Source: a bacterium
GTDB taxonomy: Bacteria > Bacillota > Clostridia > Lachnospirales > Lachnospiraceae
Length of the DNA: 34,854 nt
Assembly (NCBI GenBank): GCA_963596755.1
Contig: CAVBNJ010000001.1
Span: forward strand, 1 to 34,854
Direction: 5' to 3'
A program made the position numbers and the translations under genes. The notes under the pieces are model-generated. The model did no database searches, was not told the DNA's origin, and saw only the letters and a program-made list of their open reading frames with translations. Positions 2,337 to 24,186 of this stretch are shown here, one piece after another; within the stretch, counting starts at the first letter, position 1, and the number at the start of each line of letters is the position of its first letter.

Positions 2337-2363
2337 GAAGTAAATCAGTAAAAATTTAAGAAT

Positions 2364-2410
2364 TAAAATCGGCCGCTGCATCGGAATTGTCCGGTCGGCG
2401 GCTGATTTTA
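2364..2410 (+). other. Intercistronic stem-loop after the substrate-binding gene (mRNA stabiliser or partial terminator)
   Basis: TAAAATCGGCCGC...GCGGCTGATTTTA inverted repeat. Confidence 0.6.
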
Positions 2411-2446
2411 CATAAAGAGTACTGATGGACGGAAGGAGGACCACTT

Positions 2447-3382: not shown

Positions 3383-4263
3383 AAACATTATTAATTTTAC
3401 TTGCAGCTTTAGCCGTTATCTTAATCGTGATTGCCAAGGTTCATCCGATTGGAAAGAAAATCTCCTTATATATTGTTCTGGGACTGATCGCATTGATCAT
3501 GCTGGTTCCGTTCTATATGATGTTCGTTATGGCAACCCATACAACCAGTGAAATCTATTCCTTCCCGCCGGCACTGTGGTTTGGAACAAACCTGGCAACC
3601 AACTTCCACAACATGGTGGAGGCGGTAAACTTCCCGCGGGCCTTCCTGAACAGCTGTATCGTAACGTTTGGCAATGTGATCCTGGTACTGTTCTTCTGTT
3701 CCATCGGCGGATATGCATTCTCTGTATATGATTTCCCGGGAAAGAAAGCACTGTTTGCGATTCTTCTTGGTACGATGATGGTTCCATGGACAGCAGGTAT
3801 CATCCCGTGGTTCATCATGATGTCAAAACTGGGCTGGTTAAACAGCTTCTGGGCACTGATCATTCCGAGCTGTGCGAATGCATTCGGTATCTTCTGGATG
3901 CGGCAGTACTGCCAGAACAACGTACCGGTATCTCTGATCGAAGCAGCACGGCTCGACGGCTGCAGTGAGTGGACGATCTTCTTCCGCGTTATTGCACCAA
4001 TCCTGAAACCGGCTTATGCATCCCTTGGTATCATGCAGTTCGTAAACGTATGGAACGACTTCATGCAGCCGCTGATGATTCTGCGTAAAGCAGACAAAAT
4101 GACGCTGCCGCTGATGCTGAAGACTATGGTTGGTGACCGTGGTACTGATTACGGCGCGCTGATGTTTGCCAGCACCTGTGCGGTACTGCCGCTGCTGATT
4201 GCATTCTTAAGTGCATCTAAGTTCTTTATGTCTGGTCTGACATCTGGTGCGGTAAAAGAATAA
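3379..4263 (+). CDS. Carbohydrate ABC transporter permease (MalG/UgpE type)
   Basis: 4-nt ATGA overlap with the upstream gene; LIEAARLDGCS; C-terminal GLTSGAVKE. Confidence 0.93.
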   Translation: MKTLLILLAALAVILIVIAKVHPIGKKISLYIVLGLIALIMLVPFYMMFVMATHTTSEIYSFPPALWFGTNLATNFHNMVEAVNFPRAFLNSCIVTFGNVILVLFFCSIGGYAFSVYDFPGKKALFAILLGTMMVPWTAGIIPWFIMMSKLGWLNSFWALIIPSCANAFGIFWMRQYCQNNVPVSLIEAARLDGCSEWTIFFRVIAPILKPAYASLGIMQFVNVWNDFMQPLMILRKADKMTLPLMLKTMVGDRGTDYGALMFASTCAVLPLLIAFLSASKFFMSGLTSGAVKE

Positions 4264-4309
4264 ATATGATATGATTAAGGTATGAATAAAAAGCGAGAGA
4301 GGTGATCTT

Positions 4310-6349
4310 ATGGAAATTGTGAACGGCGAAAGACTGGTATTAGGAACGTGTTATTACCCGGAGCACTGGGACGAGAGTCTCTGGCGCGACGACTTGAAAC
4401 GAATGCTGGAAAACGGCATTGAAGTAATTCGAATCGCAGAATTTGCATGGAGTAAGATTGAGCGGTACGAAGGTGTTTTCAACTATGATTTCTTTGACAG
4501 ATTTCTGGATCTGGCAGCTGAGATGGGTATGAAAGTAATCTTTTGTACCCCGACAGCGACTCCGCCGGCATGGCTGACAGAAAAATATCCGGAAGTGCTG
4601 AATGCGAACATGGACGGCGTTCTGTACCGTCATGGCGGAAGAAGACATTACAACTACAATTCTCCGAAATATCAGGAACTGACGAGAATCATCGTTGAAA
4701 AATCCGCATCTCATTATGCAAAACATCCGGCCATTATCGGATGGCAGATCGACAACGAGATCAACTGCGAGAAAAATGAGTTCTATTCCGAAAGTGATAC
4801 GATCGCTTTCCGCAAATTCCTGATGGAAAAATACGGAAGCATCGATGCATTGAATGATGCATGGGGAACCAATTTCTGGAATCAGACGTACAACAGTTTC
4901 GAGGAAGTATATGTTCCGAGAACAACACTGAGCAACAATACCAACCCGCATGAAGTGCTGGATTATACAAGATTCGTATCCGACAGTGCATGCAAATTTG
5001 CAAAACTGCAGAGCGATATCATCCGCAAATATTTGAAGCCGGGTGATTTTATCACCACCAATGGTCTGTTCGGCAACCTGGACAACCAGAGAATGACAAA
5101 CGAGAGTCTGGATTTCATCATGTATGATTCCTACCCGAACTTTGCTTACTGCCTGGATGCGTACAAACCAGACAACTTCCTGAAAGACCGTATGTGGAGC
5201 CGCAACCTGTCTGAGGTTCGTGCCGTATCCAAAAACTTCGGCATCATGGAGCAGCAGTCCGGCGCCAATGGATGGAATACCGGTATGGCAGCTCCGACTC
5301 CGAAACCGGGACAGATGACGCTGTGGACGATGCAGAGTGTAGCACACGGTGCCGATTATATCAGCTATTTCCGCTGGAGAACGTGTACATACGGAACAGA
5401 GATCTACTGGCATGGCATCCTGGATTATTCCGGAAGAGACAACCGCAGACTGGCGGAAGTAAAATCGATTCATGAGAAATTCCAGAAATTGTCCGAGATC
5501 GCAGGTTCCAAATATGAAGCAAAAGTTGGTTTCCTGAAAGATTACGACAACGTATGGGACAGCCAGCTGGATGTATGGCATGAAAAAGTGGAGTGGAAGA
5601 GCCAGCTTAGCATTTTCGAAGCTGCGCAGAGAACGCATACACCGATGGATTATATCTATCTGCGCGACGATGTAACCGCAGAAGATCTGAAACCATATAC
5701 CGTGCTGTTCTACCCGCATCCGGTACTGATTTCTGACGAGAGAAAAGCCGTACTCGAAGAGTACGTAAAGAACGGCGGCTGCCTGGTTCTGGGCTGCAGA
5801 AGCGGATACAAAGATATGTACGGCCGCTGCGTGATGGACAAACTGCCGGGCAAATTTGCCGAGATGACCGGCGTGGATATTCCAGAATACACCCTGGTAT
5901 CCCCGGACAACAAAGATATCGTAATCGACTGGGACGGCACCAAACTGGAAGCTGCTGTATTTAATGATCAGCTGGCTGCAGTTGGAGAGCACGCAGAAGT
6001 TCTTGGCGCTTATGAAAACTGCTACTATGCAGGAGCACCTGGACTGATCAAGAATACCTACGGAGAAGGAACCGTATACTATTTCGGCGCAGCATTTTCT
6101 GAGGAAACCGCAGAAGTATTCCTGGAAAAACTGGGTGTGAAAGATCCATACAAAGAGAAACTGGAGATTCCGGAAACCTGCGAACTGGCTGTCAGAAAGA
6201 AAGACGATACCGAGTACTGCTTCGTCCTGAACTACAAAGAGGAAGAAACCAAAATTCAGGTCAAAGAAGAGATGACAGATCTGTATACCGGTGAAAAAGT
6301 GAGCGGTACCGTTGTTCTGAAACCGTTTGAGGTAAGAATACTGAAATAA
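4310..6349 (+). CDS. Beta-galactosidase, glycoside hydrolase family 42
   Basis: YYPEHW, EFAWS, TPTATPPAWL, WQIDNE (acid/base), IMEQQSG (nucleophile), YFRWR. Confidence 0.95.
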   Translation: MEIVNGERLVLGTCYYPEHWDESLWRDDLKRMLENGIEVIRIAEFAWSKIERYEGVFNYDFFDRFLDLAAEMGMKVIFCTPTATPPAWLTEKYPEVLNANMDGVLYRHGGRRHYNYNSPKYQELTRIIVEKSASHYAKHPAIIGWQIDNEINCEKNEFYSESDTIAFRKFLMEKYGSIDALNDAWGTNFWNQTYNSFEEVYVPRTTLSNNTNPHEVLDYTRFVSDSACKFAKLQSDIIRKYLKPGDFITTNGLFGNLDNQRMTNESLDFIMYDSYPNFAYCLDAYKPDNFLKDRMWSRNLSEVRAVSKNFGIMEQQSGANGWNTGMAAPTPKPGQMTLWTMQSVAHGADYISYFRWRTCTYGTEIYWHGILDYSGRDNRRLAEVKSIHEKFQKLSEIAGSKYEAKVGFLKDYDNVWDSQLDVWHEKVEWKSQLSIFEAAQRTHTPMDYIYLRDDVTAEDLKPYTVLFYPHPVLISDERKAVLEEYVKNGGCLVLGCRSGYKDMYGRCVMDKLPGKFAEMTGVDIPEYTLVSPDNKDIVIDWDGTKLEAAVFNDQLAAVGEHAEVLGAYENCYYAGAPGLIKNTYGEGTVYYFGAAFSEETAEVFLEKLGVKDPYKEKLEIPETCELAVRKKDDTEYCFVLNYKEEETKIQVKEEMTDLYTGEKVSGTVVLKPFEVRILK

Positions 6350-6363
6350 AAAGATAAGCAGAG

Positions 6364-6411
6364 AAAAGAAGGGGCGACTGCATGAAATTAGTGCAGCGCT
6401 CTTTCTTTTTT
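6364..6411 (+). terminator. Intrinsic terminator of the sugar operon
   Basis: AAGAAGGGGCG...CGCTCTTTCTT stem followed by a T-run. Confidence 0.7.
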
Positions 6412-6520
6412 GAGTAAATAAAATTACAGAAAGACACTTGTTCCTGCCTTGCACTTTCAGAGAACTCCCGTTAGAATCGTAGCTATAGAAAAGATAGGAC
6501 AAAAATGGAGGGCTTATAAA

Positions 6521-7702
6521 ATGAAAGATTTTATTTATGACGGAAGTGTCCGCATTGTTTACGGTGCGGGGCAGAAGGATTTTGTGATTGGGGAACTTGC
6601 GAAGCTTGGTAAGCGGCTGCTGGTCGTGCCGACAGGAAGCTTTGTGGCAGGCGGCCATTATGAGGAGCTGAAAAACGATCTCGAGGCGGCAGGGCTTACC
6701 GTGTTCTGTCTGAAAGCTGGAAAAGAGCCGCTGCTCAGCAAAGTAAATGAGGGCATCAAGCTTTGTCTGGAGGAAAAGATTGAGGCAGTTCTCGGTATCG
6801 GCGGCGGAGTCAGCATGGATCTGGCAAAGACGATTGCGTTTGGTGCGCTGCATGCGGATGTGCCGATGGAAAAATATCTGACGTACGAAGTTTCGACAGA
6901 GAATCTGGCACAGCTTCCGGTTGTAACAATTCCGACGAACCCGATGTCCGGCTCCGAGACGAATGCGGATGTGCAGATCACACTCGACGACACCGGTCTG
7001 CAGGCAGGCTGCCCGGTTGGAAAAGCTGTCTTTACCTGGCTGAACCCGGTTTATATGGCATCTCTCCCGGACAAAGTGCTGACTTCCGGACAGATGACTG
7101 CGTTTGTGCAGATTTCTATTAATTATCTGAACCTCAGCCGTTCCGTACTGGCGGAGCATTATGCCGAGGGAGCGATGAAAACGGTTCTCGAGTGCCTGCG
7201 CAGAAGCCTCGCCGATCCGACCGATCTGGATGCGCGCGGAACGCTGCTGCTGAACAGTGCACTCAGCCTGTCCGGCATCAATGATCTCGGTCGCCAGGGC
7301 GAATTCGTGCCGTATCCGCTGCAGTCCTTTGCACAGCGTTACCTTGGACTGAATTACCCGCAGGCATTAAACGGACTGTTCCCGTACTGGCTGAAAGAGA
7401 TCTATCGCGCAAGTGAAGACAAGGGAATTTTCTACCGCTATTTTGAGGAGATTCTGAATGTCTCCACCGAGGGCAAAGAGGACGAGGCTCTGCTGCAGGA
7501 AGCGTTTGCGGCACTGAAAGCACTGTATCAGGAATTCGGCATTGCCTTTACCTACGGAGAAATTGCCGAGGATCCGAAGGATCATCAGAAGCTGGTCGAA
7601 ATCATCGACTCTTTCGGACCGATGCCGTGTGGTATCATGGAGATCAATACGGAGAAAATGGCGAAAATGATCGAGGATGCGATCGTTGGGAACCTGAAAT
7701 AA
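6521..7702 (+). CDS. Iron-containing alcohol dehydrogenase family protein (BdhA-like) with degenerate metal site
   Basis: GGAGG RBS then ATG at 6521; GIGGGVSMDLAK nucleotide-binding loop, IPT..SGSE motif; Asp/His metal ligands absent. Confidence 0.85.
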   Translation: MKDFIYDGSVRIVYGAGQKDFVIGELAKLGKRLLVVPTGSFVAGGHYEELKNDLEAAGLTVFCLKAGKEPLLSKVNEGIKLCLEEKIEAVLGIGGGVSMDLAKTIAFGALHADVPMEKYLTYEVSTENLAQLPVVTIPTNPMSGSETNADVQITLDDTGLQAGCPVGKAVFTWLNPVYMASLPDKVLTSGQMTAFVQISINYLNLSRSVLAEHYAEGAMKTVLECLRRSLADPTDLDARGTLLLNSALSLSGINDLGRQGEFVPYPLQSFAQRYLGLNYPQALNGLFPYWLKEIYRASEDKGIFYRYFEEILNVSTEGKEDEALLQEAFAALKALYQEFGIAFTYGEIAEDPKDHQKLVEIIDSFGPMPCGIMEINTEKMAKMIEDAIVGNLK

Positions 7703-7777
7703 GTGATTCTACTTCGAGGGGGTGTGATTTCACCCCCTTTTCTGATATGATTTCCTTAAAGAAAAGGGGGAAATCGT

Positions 7778-8683
7778 ATGGATCTTGTCAAAATTGGAAA
7801 ATATATTGCGGAAAAAAGAAAAGCGCTCGGCATGACACAGAAGCAGCTGGCGGAGCAGCTCGGGATGAGTGATAAATCTGTCTCGAAATGGGAGCGGGGC
7901 GTCTGCCTGCCGGATGTGTCGGTGTATCTGGAACTGTGTAAGATTCTCGGCATCACCATCAACGAATTTCTCGCCGGGGAGGACATCACCGAGGAAAATC
8001 TGACGGCGAAATCGGAGGACAACCTGATCCAGGTTGCGAAGGACAGCAAGCATCGGCAGAAGCATTTGAAAGGTATGATTGCGGTGCTGGCGCTGACGGC
8101 TGTACTGGCGATTGCGGCAGCCGGCGTGATGTGGTACCGCAGTGTGCGGACACCGAAGAATTTTATTGCACCGTATGACATGGATTCACCGGAAATGAAC
8201 ATCGCCCGGGTACTTTCCGGTCCGGACGGCGCGATGCTCTTTCAGTATTCGGCAGATGAGCCGTTCCAGAACATGACATTGTATCTGTCGGAATATCACT
8301 ACGGCGAACAGGTTTCCAAAACGGAACTCGCAGGGCTTTCTTATGATACTTCCGGTGATCTGCCTTCTCCATCGGATGGAATGATCGCGCTGATCCCGGA
8401 TTTTGAGGAGTTCAAAGTTGATGTATATATCACAGACAGTGCCGCCAAATATCAGACGAAGTTTCCGATTCTCGAGGGCGTAGAAAACCGGGAAGTCTTC
8501 GGCAGATCCGGCACGGAAATCACGGATGACATTGCACTTGTCTATGATAAAGAGCTGGGACTGGGGGCGTTCTTTTATGGAGAGAATGGGCTCAGCGCGT
8601 ATTCTGTTGAGGATTTGGAAAAAGGAAATGTGGAATTGAAGAACGAGTATACGTATTATGTCTCTGTTGAGTTTTCAAAATAG
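7778..8683 (+). CDS. XRE-family HTH regulator with one TM helix and a C-terminal extracytoplasmic domain
   Basis: TQKQLAEQLGMSDKSVSKWERG..PD; hydrophobic MIAVLALTAVLAIAAAGVMWY. Confidence 0.85.
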   Translation: MDLVKIGKYIAEKRKALGMTQKQLAEQLGMSDKSVSKWERGVCLPDVSVYLELCKILGITINEFLAGEDITEENLTAKSEDNLIQVAKDSKHRQKHLKGMIAVLALTAVLAIAAAGVMWYRSVRTPKNFIAPYDMDSPEMNIARVLSGPDGAMLFQYSADEPFQNMTLYLSEYHYGEQVSKTELAGLSYDTSGDLPSPSDGMIALIPDFEEFKVDVYITDSAAKYQTKFPILEGVENREVFGRSGTEITDDIALVYDKELGLGAFFYGENGLSAYSVEDLEKGNVELKNEYTYYVSVEFSK

Positions 8684-8712
8684 AAAAATGAAGTGACCGT
8701 GCACAGATCTTC

Positions 8713-8760
8713 TTGACAAAATAGTTAGACTGAGCTAACCTCATCTTAAGAGAATCTAAC
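8713..8760 (+). promoter_or_regulatory. Sigma-A promoter with two palindromic operator-like sites
   Basis: TTGACA (8713)-17 bp-TAACCT (8736); GTTAG-N6-CTAAC at 8724-8739 and degenerate CTTAA-N6-CTAAC at 8745-8760. Confidence 0.6.
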
Positions 8761-8775
8761 TTGGGAGGTGGGACG

Positions 8776-9408
8776 ATGAGTGTAACTGTTTTGCGATTTC
8801 TGCTGGTGCTGGGGATCATCGGGCATGCGGTGAATATGTACTGCGACCGCATCATCAGCATATTTCCGAATGGCAGGCTGATGATTGAGGACATCAAGAC
8901 CATCGGTGAGGAAGGAAAGATGGCGAAGGTGATGGAGGGCGTATCGGAGAAAGTGCCCATGCGTTCGGCGGTCTGGGGTGCCTATTCGCTGGTGCTGCAG
9001 TTTTTTGGATATTTTGCGATCACGGCGTACATCTACGGAAAATCCAAAATCTATGGTTCGATCATGTTCGCGGCGATCGTCATGTTCATCACAGTCGGAG
9101 CGGCGCACCATGTGAAAACGGCGCTGATGGAGTATGTATTTCTTCATATGGGAAAAGATGCAAGAGCAAAAGATATGATGGTGGCTCTGTATAACGGCGA
9201 GACGGCAACGACGAAGTGCTATATCGGGTATCTCGTCTATGTATTTGCACTGATCGCTGCAATTGTAACCGGCACGGCAGCAGTCCCGGTCTGGGCAGTC
9301 ATCTTTACGGTTCTGCCGATCTTTCTTGCGATGTTTCCGTTTCGAATCATCGGAACACTGCACATCGCGGCGATGGTTTCGATGCTGGCGTGGATCTTTT
9401 TGGTATAG
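8776..9408 (+). CDS. Multi-pass membrane protein of unknown function
   Basis: GGGAGGTG RBS, ATG at 8776, about six hydrophobic segments. Confidence 0.8.
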   Translation: MSVTVLRFLLVLGIIGHAVNMYCDRIISIFPNGRLMIEDIKTIGEEGKMAKVMEGVSEKVPMRSAVWGAYSLVLQFFGYFAITAYIYGKSKIYGSIMFAAIVMFITVGAAHHVKTALMEYVFLHMGKDARAKDMMVALYNGETATTKCYIGYLVYVFALIAAIVTGTAAVPVWAVIFTVLPIFLAMFPFRIIGTLHIAAMVSMLAWIFLV

Positions 9409-10916: not shown

Positions 10917-11870
10917 TTATGCAGTTACAAGTTTATTTTCTTTAATAATTACTTTTATTTGGCTTTCCGACAATTCTGCTATATCAGCAATTTGAGCGAT
11001 AGTATAGCCTTTTTGAAACATGCGAAGAATCATGCTTTGCTGACCTGTCCGAAATCCATCTTTCAGTGCCCTTTCGCGAATCCCTTCACCTAAATTACAC
11101 ATAACATTCACATCCTCTCTGATTGTCTGGTCTAATGGGATATTGTATTCTGTTTCCATAATATCGAGTTTCTGGGTCAGTGTCAACTCGTTGGAAAATA
11201 ATGCGCAAAGAAGTCTGTGCAGTTCAAATTTCTCCTCCTGCGGAGGGAGATCAGCAAGTCCGATCAGAACAATATTAAGCAGATCAAGGCGCCCTTTCCA
11301 GGGATAGGAGTGAATCAACCCTTCGTTGGTCAGATGAATATAGTCCATACTGTTCTTGCTCATATTCATACATACCCAAATAGAATAAACTCGTTTGATC
11401 TGATTAAAATCCGATCCGGTAAAATCCCGTTCTTTCTGAGAAGAAATCATTCTGCAGGTGTAGAAAACCGCTCGGTTTAAAATATGATATTCCGTAGGTT
11501 CTTCTTTTTGTGCTTCAACGTTGATGATAATCTGCGATAAACCGTCTTTTAAGCGAACATAAAAGATAATATCAAAACGAATCAGCCCCTCATTCAGTTC
11601 TTGGTTTTCAGAATTGAAGCCGACGATGCGCTGCCCATCTTTTTCTTCAGCTCTATTCGTAAGTCCGGGATCTACAGGAACTGTACTGATGTAAGGTTCC
11701 CCTTCAATACAGGAAACAATATCTTCCGCACGCATTCCCTGAAATTCTTTTACCGTATGAACCAGGATATGAGCTAAAATCATTTTCTGACCGAGCAGAC
11801 GCTTGGCACTCGCATCATATTGTGCCGTTTTGTCCGTTGCATAAATCATATTTTTCATTTCTGTATACAA
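10917..11870 (-). CDS. Rpn family recombination-promoting nuclease / PD-(D/E)XK transposase-like protein
   Basis: YD..AK.LL N-terminus, IRFDIIF...IINVEAQ catalytic motif, RAVFY, C-terminal IAQIADIAELS HTH-like tail; start TTG 11870 or ATG 11858. Confidence 0.8.
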   Translation of the reverse strand: MYTEMKNMIYATDKTAQYDASAKRLLGQKMILAHILVHTVKEFQGMRAEDIVSCIEGEPYISTVPVDPGLTNRAEEKDGQRIVGFNSENQELNEGLIRFDIIFYVRLKDGLSQIIINVEAQKEEPTEYHILNRAVFYTCRMISSQKERDFTGSDFNQIKRVYSIWVCMNMSKNSMDYIHLTNEGLIHSYPWKGRLDLLNIVLIGLADLPPQEEKFELHRLLCALFSNELTLTQKLDIMETEYNIPLDQTIREDVNVMCNLGEGIRERALKDGFRTGQQSMILRMFQKGYTIAQIADIAELSESQIKVIIKENKLVTA

Positions 11871-11880
11871 CAAAAATACC

Positions 11881-11990
11881 CTCTTTCTTTTCTGCTGCAT
11901 CTCAGAAATGTTTTTGTACGGGTATTATAGCGCAAAGACTATTTTAAAACAATTGGGAATTTGTTCTAAAGATTTTTAGCTTTTTTCTAC
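11881..11990 (-). repeat. Promoter/leader block, copy 2
   Basis: TTGTTT-17-TATAAT on the minus strand plus shared ATTTGTTCTAAAGAT and TTTTTTCTAC blocks. Confidence 0.75.
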
Positions 11991-13420: not shown

Positions 13421-13444
13421 AGACCAGTACGTTTCTATACAGAG

Positions 13445-13471
13445 CAGGAGGCCGTGAATTGCGGCCTCCTG
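13445..13471. terminator. Hairpin terminator between the antiporter and the ACGX operon end
   Basis: CAGGAGGCCG-loop-CGGCCTCCTG. Confidence 0.7.
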
Positions 13472-13486
13472 TTTGAGTTTAAGAAT

Positions 13487-14011
13487 TTATTTTTTCAGAA
13501 CCTTCACAATTTCCCCAACATACATTTCATGAAAATCCCGTTCCGGATAATTGAAATCAATCAGTCCGCGGTCCACATATCCATTTTCGAGGAGCGGTGC
13601 ATGATAGAGCTTTCGGCAGATCAGAACGAGATCGGCTTCTGCAAAATAGGTGGTGCCGTCGGAAAAAACAGGAGTCAGTTCGGCGGAAGCAATTTTGTCC
13701 TCGCTTCTGCCGGAATGCGTACCAAGATAGGCGAGTGCTTTCTTATGACCATTTCCGAAATGGGTCAAGGAAAAGTAAGATTCCTGATCCATGAAAGTTT
13801 TCGTATACCGGCTGGGGCGGACATAGCAGATGGCAGTCGGAAGGCAGTTCTGATGTGTACCGCGTTCCCAGACAGAACCAAGGTGTCCCCAGGCAACGGT
13901 CATGGAATTAAATCCATGTTCCTCTGTTCCGGCAGTCAGGGCGAGCCAGTCCTTTCCAAACAAGGTAAATGGATTCAGCTGCAGTGTCTTTATATCAATT
14001 TCTTTGAACAT
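13487..14011 (-). CDS. Flavin reductase-like (flavoredoxin, split-barrel FMN-binding) protein
   Basis: NSMTVAWG, VRPSRYT, GTHSGRSEDK, HEMYVGEI. Confidence 0.88.
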   Translation of the reverse strand: MFKEIDIKTLQLNPFTLFGKDWLALTAGTEEHGFNSMTVAWGHLGSVWERGTHQNCLPTAICYVRPSRYTKTFMDQESYFSLTHFGNGHKKALAYLGTHSGRSEDKIASAELTPVFSDGTTYFAEADLVLICRKLYHAPLLENGYVDRGLIDFNYPERDFHEMYVGEIVKVLKK

Positions 14012-14042
14012 TCTGTATCCTTTCTATCATCGCAAAGGAGAT

Positions 14043-14636
14043 TTAAAATCGAATTACGCGTTTCTCTTTTCTTGGTTTTGCCGCAGGGTGGCGATCTTCT
14101 TTTTTGGGGTATCCAAGGAGCAGCTGCAGCACCGCATAATATCCGTCCGGGATCTCCCATTTGCGGAGGATTTCCTGGCCATACGGATCTGCAAATGCCG
14201 TCCAGCCCTGGCCGATGTAGCAGGAACCGATGCCGATGGAGTCGGCGAGGAGCATCATGTTTTCGGCAGCGACGGCGCAGTCATCAACGGAGAAGAGAAA
14301 ATTGCGCGGGGCAAACAGGGTGATGACGGTCGGCGCGTCATAGAATGCATTGATCAGTTTTGGATCATCCGCGATGCTTGGCTGTTCCTTGGAGACAAAA
14401 TTGGTTCCGGTCGCCATGCGTGGGTTGGAATTGGCGCGCTTGATTTTTCCGAGTTTTTCATTCGCTTCCCGATCCTGGCACACTGCAAAAATCACGCCCT
14501 GCCGTCCGCCGGCACTCGGCGCATACATGCCCGCCTGTAAAATCTGTTCCAGTTCTTCTTCGGTAATTTGCGCCGGATCAAACCGCCGGATTGCGCGCCG
14601 GTGCATAATGGCTTTCATCACTTCATTTTCTTTCAT
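14043..14636 (-). CDS. Nitroreductase family protein
   Basis: RRAIRRF, APSAGGRQ, AAENMML.A...GIGSCYIG; ATG directly abuts the radical SAM stop codon. Confidence 0.92.
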   Translation of the reverse strand: MKENEVMKAIMHRRAIRRFDPAQITEEELEQILQAGMYAPSAGGRQGVIFAVCQDREANEKLGKIKRANSNPRMATGTNFVSKEQPSIADDPKLINAFYDAPTVITLFAPRNFLFSVDDCAVAAENMMLLADSIGIGSCYIGQGWTAFADPYGQEILRKWEIPDGYYAVLQLLLGYPKKEDRHPAAKPRKEKRVIRF

Positions 14637-15671
14637 TTAAACGACCTCCTTCCAGCACTGTGGATCTGCTGCATAAAAATTTCCGTCCTTTCCACTTGCA
14701 ACCGCCGGGCATCCGCGGCAGAACGCCAGCAGTTCGCATCGGGAACATTTCTCAAACTTCGTGTAATCCCGATACGTTTCCATCTGACCAATCCAGACAT
14801 CCGCAATCCGATCTGTAAAAACATTTGCCACATGACTGTTCTGCACGCGGCGGCAGGCGTAGAGATCACCGTTCGGAAGAATCGTCAGATGACAGTTTCC
14901 GCAGTTGCAGCCGCCGTAAATCATGCCCTCTTTGGCATAGGACGGAATCTGAAACGCGCCGGTTTCGTATTCGTAGAGCGTCCACAGATGATCTTTTTTA
15001 TTGAAATACGTTTTGCATCCCATCGCTTCGTATTCCTTAAATTTCCGGTCGCAGTCCGCCAGCAGTTTCCGGTAGTGGAGCGGCTCGATGTTCGTGTCTT
15101 TTTCCTCGCTGGTCGGACAGTAGCGGGCAAATGCGTACACATTGACACCGGCTTTTACAACCGCATCAATGATGTCAGGAACTTCGTCAATGTTCGTACC
15201 GGAAACGGTTGTCATCACAACGGAGCGGATACCGGCGCGATTGATACAGCCGATTTTCTCGAGCGTGATATCAAAACTACCCGGCTTTCGGAACCAGTCG
15301 TGTGTTTCGCGCATACCGTCAATTGAAAGTTGGTATTTTTCGCATCCGCACTCCTTCAGCCGCCGACAGACCTCATCCGAAAGATGAAAGGGATTGCCGA
15401 GAATCGTAAAGGCGATGTGATGCGCCTGGAACAGCGCGAGCAGTTTCCAGAAGTCCGGGTGCAGAATCGGGTCGCCGCCGGTTAGATAAAAATACGGCGT
15501 GCGGTGATAGACCTCACAGAAATCAAGACAGTTGTAAAACGTATCCTGCATCTGATCCCAGGTCATGGAATCGAGGTGTTTGCAGTTGTCTTCGGAAAAA
15601 ATATAGCAGTGCTTGCATCGCTGGTCACAGTCGTCGGTGATGTGCCATTGGAAAGAAAAATACGGATTCAT
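14637..15671 (-). CDS. acgM: Radical SAM/SPASM peptide maturase, ACGX system
   Basis: CDQRCKHC, TGGDP, SIDG; SPASM cysteines CNCGNC...YAC...CSRC...CRGC...DPQC; AAAGGAG RBS; directly downstream of the ACGX peptide. Confidence 0.92.
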   Translation of the reverse strand: MNPYFSFQWHITDDCDQRCKHCYIFSEDNCKHLDSMTWDQMQDTFYNCLDFCEVYHRTPYFYLTGGDPILHPDFWKLLALFQAHHIAFTILGNPFHLSDEVCRRLKECGCEKYQLSIDGMRETHDWFRKPGSFDITLEKIGCINRAGIRSVVMTTVSGTNIDEVPDIIDAVVKAGVNVYAFARYCPTSEEKDTNIEPLHYRKLLADCDRKFKEYEAMGCKTYFNKKDHLWTLYEYETGAFQIPSYAKEGMIYGGCNCGNCHLTILPNGDLYACRRVQNSHVANVFTDRIADVWIGQMETYRDYTKFEKCSRCELLAFCRGCPAVASGKDGNFYAADPQCWKEVV

Positions 15672-15752
15672 AGATAAGTCTCCTTTATCAGATTTTGTCA
15701 GAGTCCAGGGCGCATTTTTCAAAACGGACCATGGGAGAAAATGTCCGTTCTG

Positions 15753-15797
15753 AAAAATACACCCCGGTGTATGGATAACACATTTGCAGGGTGTATT
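15753..15797 (-). terminator. Hairpin between precursor and maturase (leaky terminator or stabiliser)
   Basis: AATACACCC...GGGTGTATT followed by Ts on the minus strand. Confidence 0.55.
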
Positions 15798-15808
15798 CCG
15801 GTGCAGAC

Positions 15809-16003
15809 TTATTTGTCGCCGGCACCACAGGCAGAACCGCAGGCTGCCGGTTTTTCTTCCGGTTTGTCGGAAGTACCGCAGGCAGAACCACAGGCCGCCG
15901 GAGTTTCAGCTGGTTTATCGCCAGCACCGCACGCAGAGCCGCAGGCTGCCGCCGGTTTTTCTGTTGCCATTTTCGTCCATCCAAATAAATTCGCAAGTGC
16001 CAT
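15809..16003 (-). CDS. acgA: ACGX-repeat RiPP precursor peptide (64 aa, three core repeats)
   Basis: MALANLFGWTK leader then 3x ACGSACG(AG/TS)DK; GGAGGT RBS; 51-bp DNA period (15831/15882/15933). Confidence 0.92.
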   Translation of the reverse strand: MALANLFGWTKMATEKPAAACGSACGAGDKPAETPAACGSACGTSDKPEEKPAACGSACGAGDK

Positions 16004-16059: not shown

Positions 16060-16147
16060 ATTGTATCGGGGAGAAGGGCAGAAAAAAAGTACGCACAAAT
16101 CTATTACCTAGTCATAAAAAAATAACCCGGGTTATAAAAAGGTGACT
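16060..16147. promoter_or_regulatory. acgA promoter and three 5-6-5 operator boxes, probably bound by HxlR
   Basis: Minus-strand TACAAT at 16060-65; CGCAC-N6-ATTAC (16092), GTCAT-N6-ATAAC (16111), GTTAT-N6-GTGAC (16131). Confidence 0.7.
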
Positions 16148-16220: not shown

Positions 16221-16547
16221 ATGATCACAAAAGAAGAAATGCCGGCATGCCCGGTGGCGACGACCGTCTCTTTGATCGGAAGCAAATGGAAACTTCTGAT
16301 CATCCGAAACCTGCTCGTGCGTCCGTGGCGTTTTAATGAACTGAAAAAAGATCTGGAAGGCATCAGCCAGAAGGTGCTGACGGACAGCCTCCGTTCGATG
16401 GAAGCCGACGGAATCATCACAAGAACCGTATACCCGGAGGTGCCGCCGCGCGTCGAATATGCTTTAAGCGAACTCGGCGAATCCATGCGGCCGATTATCA
16501 AGTCGATGGAAGAGTGGGGGATTTCATATAAAGAAATGCATGAATGA
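16221..16547 (+). CDS. HxlR/DUF24-family winged-helix regulator with N-terminal Cys
   Basis: ACPVATTVSLIGSKWK, RFNEL, YPEVPPRVEYALS; GGGAGG RBS. Confidence 0.93.
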   Translation: MITKEEMPACPVATTVSLIGSKWKLLIIRNLLVRPWRFNELKKDLEGISQKVLTDSLRSMEADGIITRTVYPEVPPRVEYALSELGESMRPIIKSMEEWGISYKEMHE

Positions 16548-16597: not shown

Positions 16598-17320
16598 TTA
16601 AACCTCGCCGAACAGCAGATGTGCCATATGTTTTCCATCCACACCGCCTGCCAGCAGACCTTCGAGGCAGTAATGGCAGTAACAGACAACCGTATCGGTC
16701 TGATATTTTTTACAGTATTCTTTCATAATCTGAACCTGCTCTTCCTCACTGTGCGGAAGGAAAAGCCCATCAATATCATCCCGATAATGCTTTGGTGCCA
16801 GTTTCGGATTCCGCTCGACCTGCGGGCGGTACAGAGAAGTTCCGCAGAAATCCGTCTTTTCACGGTTCATCGGAATTTCCACATATTCAATGTGCATTTT
16901 CGTGAGCAGTGACCGCACCGCATCATGCGTACCACTTCGATCGCGCATCCGCCAGCAGTCCTGCAGCGTCACGCGCATGCCGGAGTAATCCGGGAACACG
17001 AAGCTTTCGTCCTGGTCAATCAGCTCCCAGAGTGAATGAACGGCACGCACATGGCGCCATTCCTCAGAGATATTCATACAGTTGGGACAGAGCGACCAGA
17101 TCTCATCCTCCGGCGTAAACACATGACTCTGCGGCAGCGCCCGCCAGGAATCGGCAAGTTCGCCGCACGGCATCTTTTCTTCATAAATATCTTTTTTCCA
17201 TCCCGGCACGCAGCAGCGGACAACCGACATTCCGTCAAGGGAGGCGGCATAGTCCTGAATCTTTTTGCTGAGTTCCGGATACTTTGCGGTGAAGACACAG
17301 CCCGCGATATAATAATTCAT
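16598..17320 (-). CDS. Stand-alone cysteine-rich (CCG-like) Fe-S-binding protein
   Basis: GC...RCC...CPNC and DC...FCG...CYCHYC patterns as in HdrB/GlpC-type CCG domains. Confidence 0.7.
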   Translation of the reverse strand: MNYYIAGCVFTAKYPELSKKIQDYAASLDGMSVVRCCVPGWKKDIYEEKMPCGELADSWRALPQSHVFTPEDEIWSLCPNCMNISEEWRHVRAVHSLWELIDQDESFVFPDYSGMRVTLQDCWRMRDRSGTHDAVRSLLTKMHIEYVEIPMNREKTDFCGTSLYRPQVERNPKLAPKHYRDDIDGLFLPHSEEEQVQIMKEYCKKYQTDTVVCYCHYCLEGLLAGGVDGKHMAHLLFGEV

Positions 17321-17443: not shown

Positions 17444-18319
17444 ATGGAATATATTAACTCAAAAAATGTAAACGAAGATTCAGACTTTCCCTATCTTGTG
17501 CTGCATCGGAAGAATGAAACATCCCTGCCGCTCACACCGGGTTTTCAGACGTATCACTGGCATGAGGATCTGCAGTTTGTTTATGTGATGACAGGAAAAG
17601 TCTGCGTGAGAACGCTGGAAAGAACGGAGCTGCTGTCGGCGGGCGAGGGAGTTTTTATCAACAAAAATGTAGTACACCGGGAGGACCGGACAGGAGAATG
17701 TGAGTACAAATGCTTTATTTTTCCGGAACGTCTCGTGTCTTTTTATCCCGGAAGTCCTGTTATGCGCATGACACAGAGAATTACCGGAAATCATGGCATG
17801 CCGCTGGTCCGGCTTTCCGGGGAAACGGACTGGGGGAAAGAAGCATTGAAAATTCTGGAAGAGCTTGTGCAGATAGAGCAGAATAAAACAGAATTTTACT
17901 GCTGTGAGGTGCTGATCAGGATTTCGATGCTCTGGACGATCCTGCTGAAAAATCTGGAAATACCGGATGCCGCTCCGGAGACAAAAGAGGCGGTTCGGAT
18001 GCGGAAAATGCTGGGATTTATCGAAGCTCATTATGCGGAGGAACTGTCGCTGGAAATGCTGTCCGAAAGTGCAGGAATCAGCAATTCCGAAGCGATCCGC
18101 TGTTTTAAGAAAATGATGCAGACAACGCCGTACCGTTATCTGATAGACGTCCGGCTGGCGAAAGCGGAAAATCTGTTGAAGGAGACAGCGTTGCCGATCA
18201 GCGAAATTGCATTCCAGACGGGATTTAATCAGCAGGCCTATTTTGGAAAATGCTTCCGGGAGAAGATGAACTGTTCCCCGCGGGAATATCGGACAAAAAA
18301 CGGTGCTCAAAAGGCATAA
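17444..18319 (+). CDS. AraC-family regulator with N-terminal cupin
   Basis: HWHEDLQF; ISEIAFQTGF...YFGKCFREKMNCSPREYR. Confidence 0.93.
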   Translation: MEYINSKNVNEDSDFPYLVLHRKNETSLPLTPGFQTYHWHEDLQFVYVMTGKVCVRTLERTELLSAGEGVFINKNVVHREDRTGECEYKCFIFPERLVSFYPGSPVMRMTQRITGNHGMPLVRLSGETDWGKEALKILEELVQIEQNKTEFYCCEVLIRISMLWTILLKNLEIPDAAPETKEAVRMRKMLGFIEAHYAEELSLEMLSESAGISNSEAIRCFKKMMQTTPYRYLIDVRLAKAENLLKETALPISEIAFQTGFNQQAYFGKCFREKMNCSPREYRTKNGAQKA

Positions 18320-18402
18320 AATATTATAAAATATAGGTATTAGACATAGGAGACTGGGTGGCTTTATAATAAAACCAGAAAATATGCTAGGAGGATAGGA
18401 TC

Positions 18403-19170
18403 ATGGCAAAAATTACACAGACAGCAGGAAGAAATGCGCTCGGAGAGTTTGCTCCGCAGTTCGCTCATTTTAATGATGACGTTCTCTTTGGAGAGAACTG
18501 GAATAACGAAGACATTGACGTAAAGACAAGAAGCATCATCACTGTAGTTGCACTGATGGCATCCGGTGTGACGGATTCTTCTTTGAAATTCCATCTGCAG
18601 AACGCAAAAGCACACGGCGTTACCCAGAAGGAAATCGCAGCAATTATTACCCACGTTGCTTTCTATGCAGGCTGGCCGAAAGGATGGGCCGTATTTAACA
18701 TGGCGAAAGAAGTCTGGAGCAACGGCGAGGGCGATCTTCCGTATGAGGACGAGGTAATGCGTGCCCATGCAAAAGAAATGGTATTCCCGATCGGCGAGCC
18801 GAATGACGGTTTTGCACAGTATTTCTCCGGCAAGAGCTATCTGGCACCGGTATCCACAAGCCAGGTCGGCATCTTCAACGTAACCTTCGAGCCGGGCTGC
18901 CGCAACAACTGGCATATCCATCACGCAAAGAGCGGCGGCGGACAGATCTTGATCTGCGTTGCCGGACGCGGCTATTATCAGGAAGAGGGCAAAGAAGCCA
19001 TCGAGATGAAACCGGGCGACTGCGTCAACATCCCGGCAGGCGTAAAACACTGGCACGGCGCAGCGCCGGATTGCTGGTTCAGCCATCTTGCCGTAGAAGT
19101 AGCAGGCGAAGAAACCTCCAACGAGTGGTGCGAGCCGGTATCGGATGAAGAGTATGGAAAATTAAAATAA
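18403..19170 (+). CDS. Carboxymuconolactone decarboxylase family protein fused to a cupin domain
   Basis: NDDVLFGENW, AFYAGWPKG; VTFEPGCRNNWHIH, HWHGA. Confidence 0.9.
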   Translation: MAKITQTAGRNALGEFAPQFAHFNDDVLFGENWNNEDIDVKTRSIITVVALMASGVTDSSLKFHLQNAKAHGVTQKEIAAIITHVAFYAGWPKGWAVFNMAKEVWSNGEGDLPYEDEVMRAHAKEMVFPIGEPNDGFAQYFSGKSYLAPVSTSQVGIFNVTFEPGCRNNWHIHHAKSGGGQILICVAGRGYYQEEGKEAIEMKPGDCVNIPAGVKHWHGAAPDCWFSHLAVEVAGEETSNEWCEPVSDEEYGKLK

Positions 19171-20319: not shown

Positions 20320-20715
20320 ATGGAACGAAGAAATACGATTCAAAAAGAAATGGTTCTGCAGACGGTGCAGGGGCTGAAACGCCATTTGACGGCGGAAGAA
20401 GTGTATGAATTCATCAAAAAAGATCATCCTACCATAGGAAAGGGAACGGTGTACCGAAACCTCGGCATTCTGGCGGAGGAGGGGGCGATCCGGAAAGTGG
20501 AAGTCCCGGACGGACCGGACCGGTTCGATTTTACGCTGAAAAATCATTACCATGTAGAATGTATCCGGTGCGGAGAAATTTTCGACGTCGATATGGATGA
20601 GGTGACCGATCTGAACGAAAGAATTCATGATACGCATGGCATGCAGTTTTTGAATTACGATATTTTCTTCAAAGGAATCTGCCTGGCGTGCAGAGCAAAA
20701 GAAACGGAGGAATGA
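20320..20715 (+). CDS. Fur-family repressor, probably PerR-like
   Basis: [26 protein letters not shown]-terminal CLAC; heads a rubrerythrin operon. Confidence 0.9.
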
Positions 20716-20717
20716 GG

Positions 20718-21932
20718 ATGGATAAAAAAGCGATGTACAAACTGAGCTACGGTCTGTTCGTGCTGACGGCGAAGGAAGCGGAGAAGGACAACGGATGTAT
20801 CATCAACACCGCAATTCAGGCATCATCGGAGCCGAATCAGCTGAGTATCTGTGTGAATAAACTGAATTACACGCACGATATGGTGCTGCGGACCGGCGAG
20901 TTTACCGTATCGGTTCTGAGCCAGAATGCGAAATTTGATCTGTTCAAACAGTTCGGCTTCCAGTCGGGACGGGATGTCGATAAGTTTGAAAACTTTGGTG
21001 CATGTGCCCGCGGGGCAAATGGGATTTATTACATCACCGAAGGAACGAATGCTTACATTTCCGTGAAGGTGAAAAAGACGGAGGATCTGGGATCGCATAC
21101 GATGTTTATCGGTGAGATTACAGACATGGAAGTTTTGAGTGATGCGCCGTCGGTAACGTATGCGTATTATCTGGAAAACATCAAACCGAAGCCGCAGGCA
21201 GTTGGAAAAACCGAGAGCGGCCAAACGGTATGGCGCTGTACGATCTGTGGTTACGAGTACGTAGGCGAGGAACTGCCGGAGGATTTTGTATGTCCTCTGT
21301 GCAAGCACCCGGCATCTGATTTTGAGAAGGTTGTAAAAACAGTGACAATAGAAAAACTAGAAAAAACAGAGAAAACGGAGGAAATCAAAATGGCAGCAAA
21401 CAAGTACGCGGGAACACAGACAGAGAAAAACTTACAGGAAGCATTTTCCGGTGAATCACAGGCTAGAAATAAATATACGTATTTTGCATCCGTAGCGAAA
21501 AAAGAAGGATACGAGCAGATGGCAGCTCTCTTCCTGAAAACAGCAGATAATGAGAAAGAGCATGCAAAAATGTGGTTCAAAGAACTCGCAGGCATCGGCG
21601 ACACCAAGGCAAATCTGGCGGCAGCCGCAGAAGGTGAAAACTACGAGTGGACCGATATGTACGAAGGCTTTGCAAAAACCGCCGAGGAAGAAGGCTTCCC
21701 GGAATTGGCTGCAAAATTCCGCGCGGTCGGTGAGATCGAGAAACATCACGAGGAGAGATACCGCGCACTGCTGAAAAACATCGAGACAGCACAGGTATTT
21801 GAAAAGAGCGAAGTAAAAGTCTGGGAATGCCGGAACTGCGGCCACATCGTAGTCGGCACCAAAGCCCCGGAAGTATGCCCGGTATGCGCGCATCCGCAGA
21901 GCTATTTTGAGGTGAGAGAAGAGAATTACTAA
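20718..21932 (+). CDS. Flavin reductase-rubredoxin-rubrerythrin fusion protein
   Basis: [60 protein letters not shown]; internal GGAGG+ATG at 21390. Confidence 0.88.
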
Positions 21933-22827: not shown

Positions 22828-24186
22828 TTATTGGGCAAAAGCAAGATGTCTGGTTTTGTAAAAATAGTAAATTACCATCGCAGCAGCAGTCAGAATCCAG
22901 GAAACCGGGCAGGAGAGGATGATGCCGTATAAGCTGTTCAGCGCTGGAAAAGCAGGGAGGACTGTGCAGATCCAGAGGATGCGGATGCCGCAGAGTCCGG
23001 CGATATTTAAAATCATGGGAACGATCACAACACCCATGCCGCGGAGCGCACTACCTGTGATTTCGAAAAAGGCAACCAGGATATAGTATGGAGCGATCGC
23101 TTTTAATACCTGCATGCCGGAGGCAATGACGGCTGAGTCTTTGGTAAACAGATAAAACAGAGAGTGACCAAACAGCAAGAAAAAGACAGATAAAAAGCCG
23201 GAAAGCAGCACATCCATGCCGAGGCAGACGCCGATTCCTTTTCTCACGCGTTCCTTTTTTCCGGCCCCGAGATTCTGACCGACGAAGGTTGATACGGATA
23301 CAGAAAATGCCGTCGAAATCATCCAGAAAATCTGATCCAGTTTTGCGTAGGAGGTATTTCCAGCCATTGCAGCGGTTCCGAGACTGTTGATGGCAAAGGT
23401 CATCACCATGCCGGACAGGCTGTTCATGATGCTCTGCAGCGCCGCCGGGAAACCAATCCATAAGATTTCGCGGAGAATCTGCGTGTCCAGATGCATGGAG
23501 CGAAGCACAAGATGATGATTGCCGCCAAGGTCGAGACGGCACAGCGCACGGAGGGTCAGAAGAGCGCTTACGGCCTGTGCCGTAACGGTTGCGATTGCCA
23601 CACCGGCTACGCCGAGACGGAAAAACGCAACGAGAATCACATCAAGAAAAATGTTGATAAAACAGCACACAATCAGATAATACAACGGCCGTCGGCTGTC
23701 GCCCAGTGCACGGAGAATGGCGGAACCGACATTGTAGAGAAATACAAAAAGGATGCCGGCAAAATAAATGCGAAGATAAGCGGCGGAAGATGCCATGATT
23801 TCTTTCGGTGTATTCAGCAGATGAAGCATCGCCGGCGTGAAAAGAATGCCAGGCACCGTGAGCAGAATGCCGCCGAGGAGTGACAGGAGAAGAGATGTCT
23901 GGATTCCTTGATGAACATTTGCGGAATCCTTTGCCCCATAAAACCGGGAAACAATAATCGTCACACCGGAAGAAAGACCGACAAACAATCCTACCACAAG
24001 ATTAATTACCATTCCTGACGATCCGCCCACGCTTGCAATCGCATCCGCACCGACAAACTGTCCGACGACGACTACATCGACGGCATTATATAATTGCTGA
24101 AACAACGTACCAAACATAATCGGCAGACAGAACAGAAGCAACTGCTTCCAGATGGTTCCTTCTGTCAGATCAACATTCTTTTTCAT
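22828..24186 (-). CDS. MATE family efflux transporter
   Basis: QQLYNAVD, LRALGDSRRP, NIFLD, GVAGVAIAT, GQNLGA. Confidence 0.93.
   Translation of the reverse strand: MKKNVDLTEGTIWKQLLLFCLPIMFGTLFQQLYNAVDVVVVGQFVGADAIASVGGSSGMVINLVVGLFVGLSSGVTIIVSRFYGAKDSANVHQGIQTSLLLSLLGGILLTVPGILFTPAMLHLLNTPKEIMASSAAYLRIYFAGILFVFLYNVGSAILRALGDSRRPLYYLIVCCFINIFLDVILVAFFRLGVAGVAIATVTAQAVSALLTLRALCRLDLGGNHHLVLRSMHLDTQILREILWIGFPAALQSIMNSLSGMVMTFAINSLGTAAMAGNTSYAKLDQIFWMISTAFSVSVSTFVGQNLGAGKKERVRKGIGVCLGMDVLLSGFLSVFFLLFGHSLFYLFTKDSAVIASGMQVLKAIAPYYILVAFFEITGSALRGMGVVIVPMILNIAGLCGIRILWICTVLPAFPALNSLYGIILSCPVSWILTAAAMVIYYFYKTRHLAFAQ

Follow-up and report, generated by a model that had tools for sequence, protein, structure and literature searches.

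An ACGX peptide and maturase locus of a gut Lachnospiraceae bacterium, probably the front cassette of an HxlR/DUF24 thiol-stress regulon

The ACGX system, a cysteine-repeat peptide (TIGR04341; PF27855) encoded beside a radical S-adenosylmethionine (SAM) enzyme with a SPASM domain (TIGR04340), is a catalogued and uncharacterised family of gut anaerobes. No publication on it was found by title or abstract; subscription journals and bioRxiv supplements were poorly covered, so one may exist. The closest described systems are the maturase SbtM, the ranthipeptide synthases, mycofactocin, the regulator HypR of Bacillus subtilis and the SirTM/Zn-Macro operons (papers are cited by PMC identifier, and for their searched passages). 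A copy of the ACGX pair was studied in a 34,854-nt stretch of DNA, here called the window (positions 1-34,854 of contig CAVBNJ010000001.1, Lachnospiraceae assembly GCA_963596755.1, genome completeness 82%), in which the operon occupies positions 13,487-16,003. By its sequence, the locus is an ordinary copy: peptide and enzyme are identical in type to the catalogued pair, adjacent and in the usual order. What is added here is the regulon and the SirTM link around this family. The evidence suggests that the ACGX cassette heads an HxlR/DUF24 thiol and electrophile stress regulon and that its peptide is a cytoplasmic, Cys-modified thiol or metal buffer, a reading that we consider probable though well short of certain.

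The initial annotation had described a minus-strand run of a precursor, a SPASM enzyme, a nitroreductase joined to it by TAA-ATG and a flavin-reductase-like gene. All four genes were present, together with two hairpins:

15809..16003, minus strand: acgA, precursor of 64 aa; TIGR04341 63.4 bits (cut-off 28)
~15914-15946, 15863-15895 and 15812-15844, minus strand: coding positions of the three AcgA cores
15705..15767, minus strand: hairpin between acgA and acgM, 25 bp including G-U pairs, U tract absent; z score -7.1
14637..15671, minus strand: acgM, radical SAM/SPASM maturase, ATG start, 344 aa; TIGR04340 595.5 bits (cut-off 400)
14043..14636, minus strand: nitroreductase-family flavin mononucleotide (FMN) enzyme, first gene after acgM; PF00881 91 bits
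13487..14011, minus strand: flavin-reductase-like gene; PF01613 24 bits, under the cut-off of 27
13444..13472, both strands scored: hairpin at the operon end, probable terminator; z score -4.5 (minus) and -6.1 (plus)

Both ACGX genes exceeded their curated cut-offs, in agreement with the family membership assigned earlier. The start of acgM lies 137 nt downstream of acgA, its TAA directly abuts the nitroreductase ATG, and 31 nt separate the nitroreductase from the flavin-reductase-like gene. Beyond the 13444-13472 hairpin a Na+/H+ antiporter gene is convergent. The spacing and the closing hairpin suggest that the four genes are co-transcribed. No peptidase, ABC exporter or immunity gene was found within the four-gene run, as had been stated, and none recurs among the neighbour clusters of 95 loci.

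AcgA contains the three repeats quoted in the initial annotation, ACGSACGAGDK, ACGSACGTSDK and ACGSACGAGDK, at residues 20-30, 37-47 and 54-64 with a spacing of 17. Its short leader has a conserved Trp9 and lacks a hydrophobic signal peptide. The acgA frame has six Cys codons, no in-frame TGA and a TAA stop. The ESM Atlas clusters nearest to AcgA were all PF27855 Target_ACGX, and the ACG-repeat motif was absent elsewhere in the 82%-complete genome.

In order to place the locus among its relatives, neighbours were identified by tblastn around the best 80 of 271 GTDB matches, which were 76-86% identical and included two from one genome. Of these loci, 75 had at least 700 nt downstream, 57 had 4 kb downstream and 69 had 1.5 kb upstream. 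A divergent HxlR/DUF24 regulator gene, absent from the initial annotation, was found in 59 of the 69 loci with sufficient upstream sequence. In the window the regulator is accompanied by an operator-like element, of which a second copy precedes a MATE gene:

16087..16129, minus strand: conserved operator-like element, core box 16087-16096, with a -10-like hexamer at ~16060-16065
16221..16547, plus strand: divergent HxlR/DUF24 regulator, HypR-like, with one N-terminal Cys (CPV); PF01638 108 bits
24249..24291, minus strand: second operator-like element, 5' of the MATE gene; profile score 36.0-37.1
22828..24186, minus strand: MATE efflux transporter; PF01554 191 bits

The CPV motif was present in 58 of 61 regulators. 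The nearest solved structures were 7kd3 and HypR (4a5m), and the single Cys aligns with the HypR sensor Cys14. HypR activates a nitroreductase under disulphide stress (PMC3351151), and the HypR-hypO arrangement is matched here by the aligned CPV sensor Cys, by a nitroreductase in the controlled operon and by a box positioned like an activator site. It differs in that the regulator of this locus lacks the second Cys, and that the regulon would include a peptide cassette, a MATE pump and SirTM/Zn-Macro genes.

For the box, 63 loci with hxlR within 1 kb were collected, 61 of which had a recognisable precursor start and 60 enough flank for alignment. The core box was found in 61 of 61 hxlR-linked intergenic regions, about 22 nt ahead of the -10-like hexamer, and at the acg promoter it lies immediately upstream of a weak -35 position. 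When this locus was left out of the profile, the scores were 37.0 for the acg promoter, 36.0 for the MATE promoter and 20.5 on contig C85; the next genomic site reached 9.6 and the best of 25 column-shuffled profiles 13.9. The box occurs at three genomic sites only. The MATE-linked box, 8 kb from the operon, is almost identical to the acg promoter element, and in one congener (G004) it is kept ahead of a truncated MATE remnant. The MATE transporter is probably co-regulated with the acg operon, and the HxlR/DUF24 regulator presumably binds the shared box. A plain sigma-70 promoter scan gave nothing above chance, and none of six genomes had a match to the box written as a single palindrome.

A box shared with a MATE gene would also fit a bacteriocin or signal that leaves the cell through the co-regulated MATE or an unlinked exporter, and many gut radical SAM peptides are antimicrobial (PMC9389541). 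This seems very improbable for AcgA, given the lack of a recurring peptidase, exporter or immunity gene in the 95 loci. MATE genes are not conserved neighbours, only distant matches (24-33%) being found in 4 of 80 ACGX loci, and the peptide is of low complexity, with a variable number of repeats and no hydrophobic or cationic core. The preference of the initial annotation for an intracellular redox, thiol or metal role over a bacteriocin gains support from the Cys-sensor regulator, the shared box and the SirTM/Zn-Macro neighbours.

Among the 57 loci with 4 kb downstream, a PNPOx-ferredoxin gene was found in 40, SirTM in 37 and Zn-Macro in 29, and the NCBI annotation of a Roseburia record gives the complete run of acgM, reductase, PNPOx-ferredoxin, Zn-Macro and SirTM. 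Most ACGX relatives thus carry this tail, whereas the copy studied here has none at the locus and has an added flavin reductase. Its tail genes are located elsewhere, downstream of the third and weaker box:

contig C85 (L097, G000:C85), 1044-8859: paralogous HxlR gene, third box, PNPOx, PNPOx-ferredoxin, MerR, MATE, Zn-macrodomain and SirTM

Beyond SirTM, the same contig carries a 308-aa gene, a MerR gene and a GNAT-like gene. The proteins showed the signature residues described for SirTM/Zn-Macro operons (Rack 2015; Ariza 2024), namely the His-to-Gln exchange (Gln in 55 of 57 sirtuins) and CxxxxHxC (45 of 45 macrodomains), and their best solved matches were 5a3a and 8rsi. The flanking oxidoreductases and the stress link are shared as well, these pairs having been linked to oxidative stress (PMC11490716). 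In the extended SirTM operon, GcvH-L and LplA2 flank SirTM/Zn-Macro; in contrast, neither is among the recurring neighbours here. The terms 'radical SAM' and 'nitroreductase' were absent from the searched text of PMC11490716 and PMC4518038.

The association was followed in both directions. In five high-GC metagenome loci with about 53% AcgM identity, the regulator, PNPOx-ferredoxin, macrodomain and SirTM were kept in a changed order; none of the four was found at 45 loci below 50% AcgM identity, many of which are short. SirTM was detected in 27 of 61 related genomes: in 8 of the 9 that have acgM and in 19 of the other 52. An obligatory pairing of ACGX and SirTM was rejected, since an acgM over the cut-off is missing from 19 of the 27 genomes with SirTM. 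Twenty SirTM regions, not all of the matches, were fetched (L208-L227), and 14 of them carry the same box, one of these beside an ACGX remnant. These gut clostridial SirTM/Zn-Macro operons without ACGX or GcvH often have an HxlR gene and PNPOx-ferredoxin too. The boxed operons constitute a candidate regulon for lone SirTM pairs. From the occurrence of SirTM in genomes without acgM and of the box at SirTM regions, the core unit at the level of sequence is the regulator, PNPOx-ferredoxin, Zn-Macro and SirTM, and the ACGX pair with its reductase is an optional front cassette.

A more direct relation can be imagined, in which AcgA stands in for lipoyl-GcvH-L: SirTM would ADP-ribosylate the conserved Asp of the Gly-Asp-Lys ends and the Zn-macrodomain would reverse it. 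GcvH-L, modified at Asp27, is the sole known SirTM target, and other targets, including those of lone pairs, are termed elusive (PMC11490716, PMC4518038, PMC12440151). The frequency of SirTM after acgM, its presence in nearly all ACGX genomes and the intact signatures agree with such a role. So does the absence of any GcvH-family match in 23 of the 27 genomes with SirTM. Searches of this 82%-complete genome and of three others where SirTM adjoins acgM (G019, G020, G034) gave neither a GCV_H nor a lipoate ligase match. Co-regulation alone accounts for the link, however, and the many SirTM genomes without ACGX, the boxed SirTM regions, the location of SirTM on another contig here and the existence of precursors without Asp make AcgA an improbable SirTM target.

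The first gene after acgM was examined in 75 loci. In 51 it encoded a nitroreductase, in 18 a PIG3-like quinone reductase and in 5 a PNPOx-ferredoxin; it was lacking in 1, so that some NAD(P)H reductase follows acgM directly in 69 of 75. The nitroreductases form two clades, 27 with at least 55% identity to the present one and 26 below, and PIG3-like quinone reductases are not a flavoprotein family. On a FastTree tree of 106 AcgM sequences the quinone-reductase label changed 18 times, at least 7 of the changes being forced by well-supported branches. What is conserved after acgM is a generic slot for some reductase, not one particular tailoring enzyme.

After acgM, the flavin reductase was seen in 1 of the 57 loci, where it is reduced to a fragment of 43 aa; in a congener (G002) it is located elsewhere in the genome. 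Its GC content at third codon positions is 0.49, against 0.60 for acgM and the nitroreductase. It was rejected as a conserved partner and is regarded as a local passenger. The gene-neighbourhood survey proposed with the initial annotation thus gave a divided answer: the reductase slot is conserved, and the pair of flavoenzymes is not.

That annotation had treated the two flavoenzymes as a unit that would tailor or use the peptide in the manner of mycofactocin, which likewise combines a peptide and a SPASM enzyme near oxidoreductases (MftA/MftC). In favour of a redox cofactor whose synthesis or use involves the nitroreductase and flavin reductase are the frequent presence of a reductase next to acgM and an unrelated flavin reductase heading the ACGX operon of Clostridium estertheticum. 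The idea did not hold up well and is judged improbable. An interchangeable, often-swapped slot filled by non-orthologous enzymes argues against specific tailoring and against a mycofactocin-type cofactor, and there is no recurring peptidase to free a small core. AcgM reaches 70.2 bits with the MftC profile (cut-off 265); AcgA ends in Gly-Asp-Lys instead of Val-Tyr, and no RiPP recognition element (RRE; RiPP, a peptide made on the ribosome and modified after translation) or peptidase partner is present.

The repeat units were surveyed in 125 distinct precursors with 760 Cys units, the residue context being partly fixed by the search pattern. The residue before Cys was Ala or Ser in 749 and that after it Gly in 756. 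Repeat units with a single Cys made up 131 of 444, and CxxxC is consequently not the invariant. The number of Cys per precursor ranged from 2 to 15 in 98 full-length relatives, among which three two-Cys cores (six Cys) were the commonest class (31 of 98). The 'three CxxxC cores' are not a special feature of this copy. Precursor and enzyme were found together in 32 of 35 metagenome loci with at least 50% identity. The string 'ACG' was not found in the searched passages of papers on radical SAM RiPPs.

AcgM has an invariant CxxxCxxC motif and the SPASM Cys residues. In the AlphaFold2 model (mean predicted local distance difference test 94) the first barrel strand starts at residue 4, and there is no N-terminal RRE. 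After its own family, the best score was that of SbtM (TIGR04082, 151 bits), then heme b synthase (106), far above PapB (59.8, cut-off 340), StsB (59) and SkfB (51). Among 150 distant representatives, 85 full-length proteins were scanned, and for 81 of these too SbtM was the top family outside ACGX. Profile scores are the basis of this link; the first ~197 positions of the SbtM profile have no counterpart in AcgM, and none of the 85 passed the SbtM cut-off. Nevertheless, SbtM is the nearest characterised family, a three-cluster SPASM enzyme whose substrate motif is a small residue followed by Cys and Gly. It converts the Cys or selenocysteine of a GGUG motif to a thio(seleno)oxazole, with a loss of 4 Da, an absorbance at 304 nm and a reactive thiol kept (PMC9204691, PMC11002830). 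Besides the low score, the differences are that the precursor here, having no in-frame TGA, offers no selenocysteine GGUG motif, and that the hosts differ. Structure comparison with Foldseek did not discriminate, as SuiB, SkfB, CteB and anSME all gave template modelling scores of 0.66-0.76.

Cys thioether crosslinks, the chemistry expected in the initial annotation, are no longer the best guess, considering the SbtM score and the single-Cys units. The corresponding reading is that AcgM is a ranthipeptide-type synthase joining the Cys sulfur to the residue four positions on (C-beta or C-gamma of Asp or Glu, or Cys) in chained thioether rings. Ranthipeptides (PapB/freyrasin, CteB) and CrpAC share with AcgA the Cys-x3-Asp/Glu spacing and the repeated Cys motifs, PapB linking Cys to Asp or Glu (PMC11002830), reportedly in CX3D motifs, and an archaeal protein with 17-residue Cys repeats receives thioethers from a SPASM enzyme (PMC13692751). 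The +4 residue was Asp in 404, Cys in 316 and Glu in 13 of the 760 units, the register is kept in three-Cys units, and each of the three cores here ends in Cys-x3-Asp. What makes this reading unlikely is the low PapB score, the missing RRE and the active site: at six catalytic-proximity positions, aligned with CteB by eye, AcgM has Y,T,G,S,R,R and CteB F,F,T,S,H,Q, with one match. Moreover, an acidic +4 residue is not universal. It occurs nowhere in the L093 and L174 precursors, Ala or Ser ends two of the three cores in C. estertheticum, and in the Methanosphaera precursor every unit has a single Cys, mostly with Ile or Val at +4. Sister-clade precursors, described below, also lack a fixed acceptor.

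Sactionine links to the C-alpha of Gly or Ala may be envisaged as well, or AcgA could be an unmodified partner carrying metal or sulfur while AcgM acts elsewhere. The Gly after Cys (in part a result of search design) and SkfB as the best solved sequence match would fit the former, and StsB makes Cys-Gly sactionines in spite of resembling another family (PMC10288494). The co-occurrence of precursor and enzyme and the Trp leader kept across the sister clade are what is expected of a substrate, and this pair of options is held to be unlikely too. Taken together, 5-thiooxazole formation is our first choice for AcgM, tentatively and at slightly less than an even chance; Cys-x3-Asp thioethers are an unlikely outcome, and all other chemistries together a rather unlikely one.

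The sister clade of AcgM (35-49% identity) is accompanied by unannotated Cys/Gly/Ser-rich precursors with a Trp-bearing leader, often containing SAQ, and no fixed acceptor (loci L131, L132, L133, L135, L146-L149, L155, L156, L164, L171 and L182). They often lie beside TehB-like methyltransferases or GT4 glycosyltransferases and are apparently uncatalogued RiPP groups. Such cores, without a fixed acceptor and near transferases of these kinds, would suit a thiol-retaining product. Other contexts were met as well. At L095 (131-3177) the AcgM-like enzyme is accompanied by another radical SAM gene and a Cys-rich precursor of the NHLP type; AcgM-like sequence also lies within 737-811-aa proteins (P0049, P0056, P0068, P0080), of which at least P0056 holds a second radical SAM domain. 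AcgM-like genes with 47-48% identity (L172, L179, L184) adjoin genes for a LanM-type lanthipeptide synthetase and an FMN reductase.

Stems of at least 12 bp between acgA and acgM were found in 57 of 85 relatives and in 1 of 85 shuffles. They vary in sequence, with a U tract in 1 of 73, and a sequence-conserved RNA family was rejected: the hairpin shape alone is conserved, and there was no Rfam match. Stem-loop control of operon stoichiometry exists in clostridia (PMC4423207). By this resemblance the hairpin likely stabilises the precursor mRNA and gives peptide in excess over enzyme, as expected of a buffer.

The following course of events is proposed. Modification of the sensor Cys of the regulator would turn on the boxed promoters, and with them the acg operon and the MATE pump; the adjacent paralogous regulator may act on the weaker C85 box, which lies ahead of PNPOx, PNPOx-ferredoxin, Zn-macrodomain and SirTM. 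The hairpin after acgA would let the peptide exceed the enzyme. AcgM may then act on each Ala/Ser-Cys-Gly unit singly, in an SbtM-like C-beta oxidation to a 5-thiooxazole, with a predicted loss of 4 Da per Cys, an absorbance near 304 nm and the thiol kept; as stated above, this step is put at a little under even. The uncleaved, unexported peptide would finally serve as a stoichiometric buffer for thiols, electrophiles or soft metals, its capacity growing with the number of repeats. The reductases and the pump would be co-induced detoxification genes, at most generic recyclers and not dedicated tailoring enzymes. BshC was not found in five genomes tested.

Several observations weigh against this explanation. 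AcgM does not reach the SbtM cut-off (151 versus 350 bits), and full-length similarity can mislead in this superfamily, as with StsB (PMC10288494). Cys, Asp or Glu occupies +4 in 733 of 760 Cys units, which is compatible with thioether chemistry, and the acgM of Methanosphaera is split, so that its precursor may be under relaxed selection. The regulator has one Cys only and, lacking the second Cys of HypR, no two-Cys intersubunit switch. A partial glutamate-cysteine ligase match was obtained in one of the same five genomes. The 80 GTDB loci are the closest of the 271 matches and are not independent. Finally, the cassette is often lost or decayed, a full acgM being present in none of 11 congeners.

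Counting this genome, acgM over the cut-off occurs in 9 of 61 related genomes and in 5 of 401 across the phylum. Remnants were found in congeners G005, G013 and G033; in one congener the regulator and box remain, with a decayed precursor and the initial 65 codons of acgM, and in another the regulator alone. Further decayed or fragmented cassettes were seen at L242, L220, L010 and L033, and one genome has two acg loci (L017 and L033). ACGX was located on secondary replicons of Roseburia, Subdoligranulum and C. estertheticum. Among archaea, a Methanosphaera plasmid record (L244, 4440-8024) has an ACGX-like locus in which acgM is split in two and genes for HxlR, PNPOx-ferredoxin and quinone reductase are present, and one ACGX cluster is named from Methanomethylophilaceae. 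ACGX is a patchy, mobile and frequently lost cassette.

Other genes were noted around the operon. A Cys-rich 240-aa protein is encoded at 16598-17320 (minus), convergent on the regulator, with a weak dicluster-binding match (NF045663, 49 bits); it is not conserved as a neighbour of ACGX loci. At 17444-19170 (plus), an AraC regulator and a carboxymuconolactone-decarboxylase/cupin fusion adjoin the HxlR regulator. At 20320-21932 (plus), at a distance of 4 kb from the operon, a PerR/Fur regulator and, after it, a fusion of flavin reductase, rubredoxin and rubrerythrin make up another oxidative-stress unit. Near the distal operon end, an Rpn-type PD-(D/E)XK nuclease lies at 10917-11900 (minus), with more copies elsewhere in the genome, and a gene resembling it sits upstream of acgA at L057.

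Bufferins and oxazolins, Cys-repeat stress buffers that bind copper through 5-thiooxazoles (PMC11626156, PMC12538549), may have chemistry or role in common with AcgA. They are made by the iron oxidase MNIO and exported by a Sec signal, and AcgA has neither. A fuller account, with a cytoplasmic poly-5-thiooxazole thiol as gene-encoded substitute for low-molecular-weight thiols or lipoyl carriers in gut anaerobes and a number of gut archaea, HypR-like induction, recycling by an interchangeable NAD(P)H reductase and ADP-ribosylation of Asp by SirTM/Zn-Macro, is highly doubtful as a whole; the same account minus the SirTM step is less so, yet still rather doubtful.

Gut clostridia widely carry the ACGX system, which extends to gut methanogens. 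The regulon supplies a concrete inducing condition, a chemical prediction (-4 Da for thiooxazole versus -2 Da for thioether) and cultured hosts, among the commensal carriers being Roseburia sp. 831b, Subdoligranulum variabile and Ruthenibacterium lactatiformans. Lone SirTM/Zn-Macro pairs of gut clostridia are likewise assigned a defined regulator and box, and AcgA and PNPOx-ferredoxin become candidate targets for them. If AcgA were a poly-5-thiooxazole modified by SirTM, it would be the first substrate assigned to a SirTM pair lacking GcvH-L, and the first stress peptide of the cytoplasm whose thiooxazoles are made by a radical SAM enzyme. If it is a thiol buffer, it would help to explain how strict gut anaerobes survive oxidants, quinones and nitro compounds.

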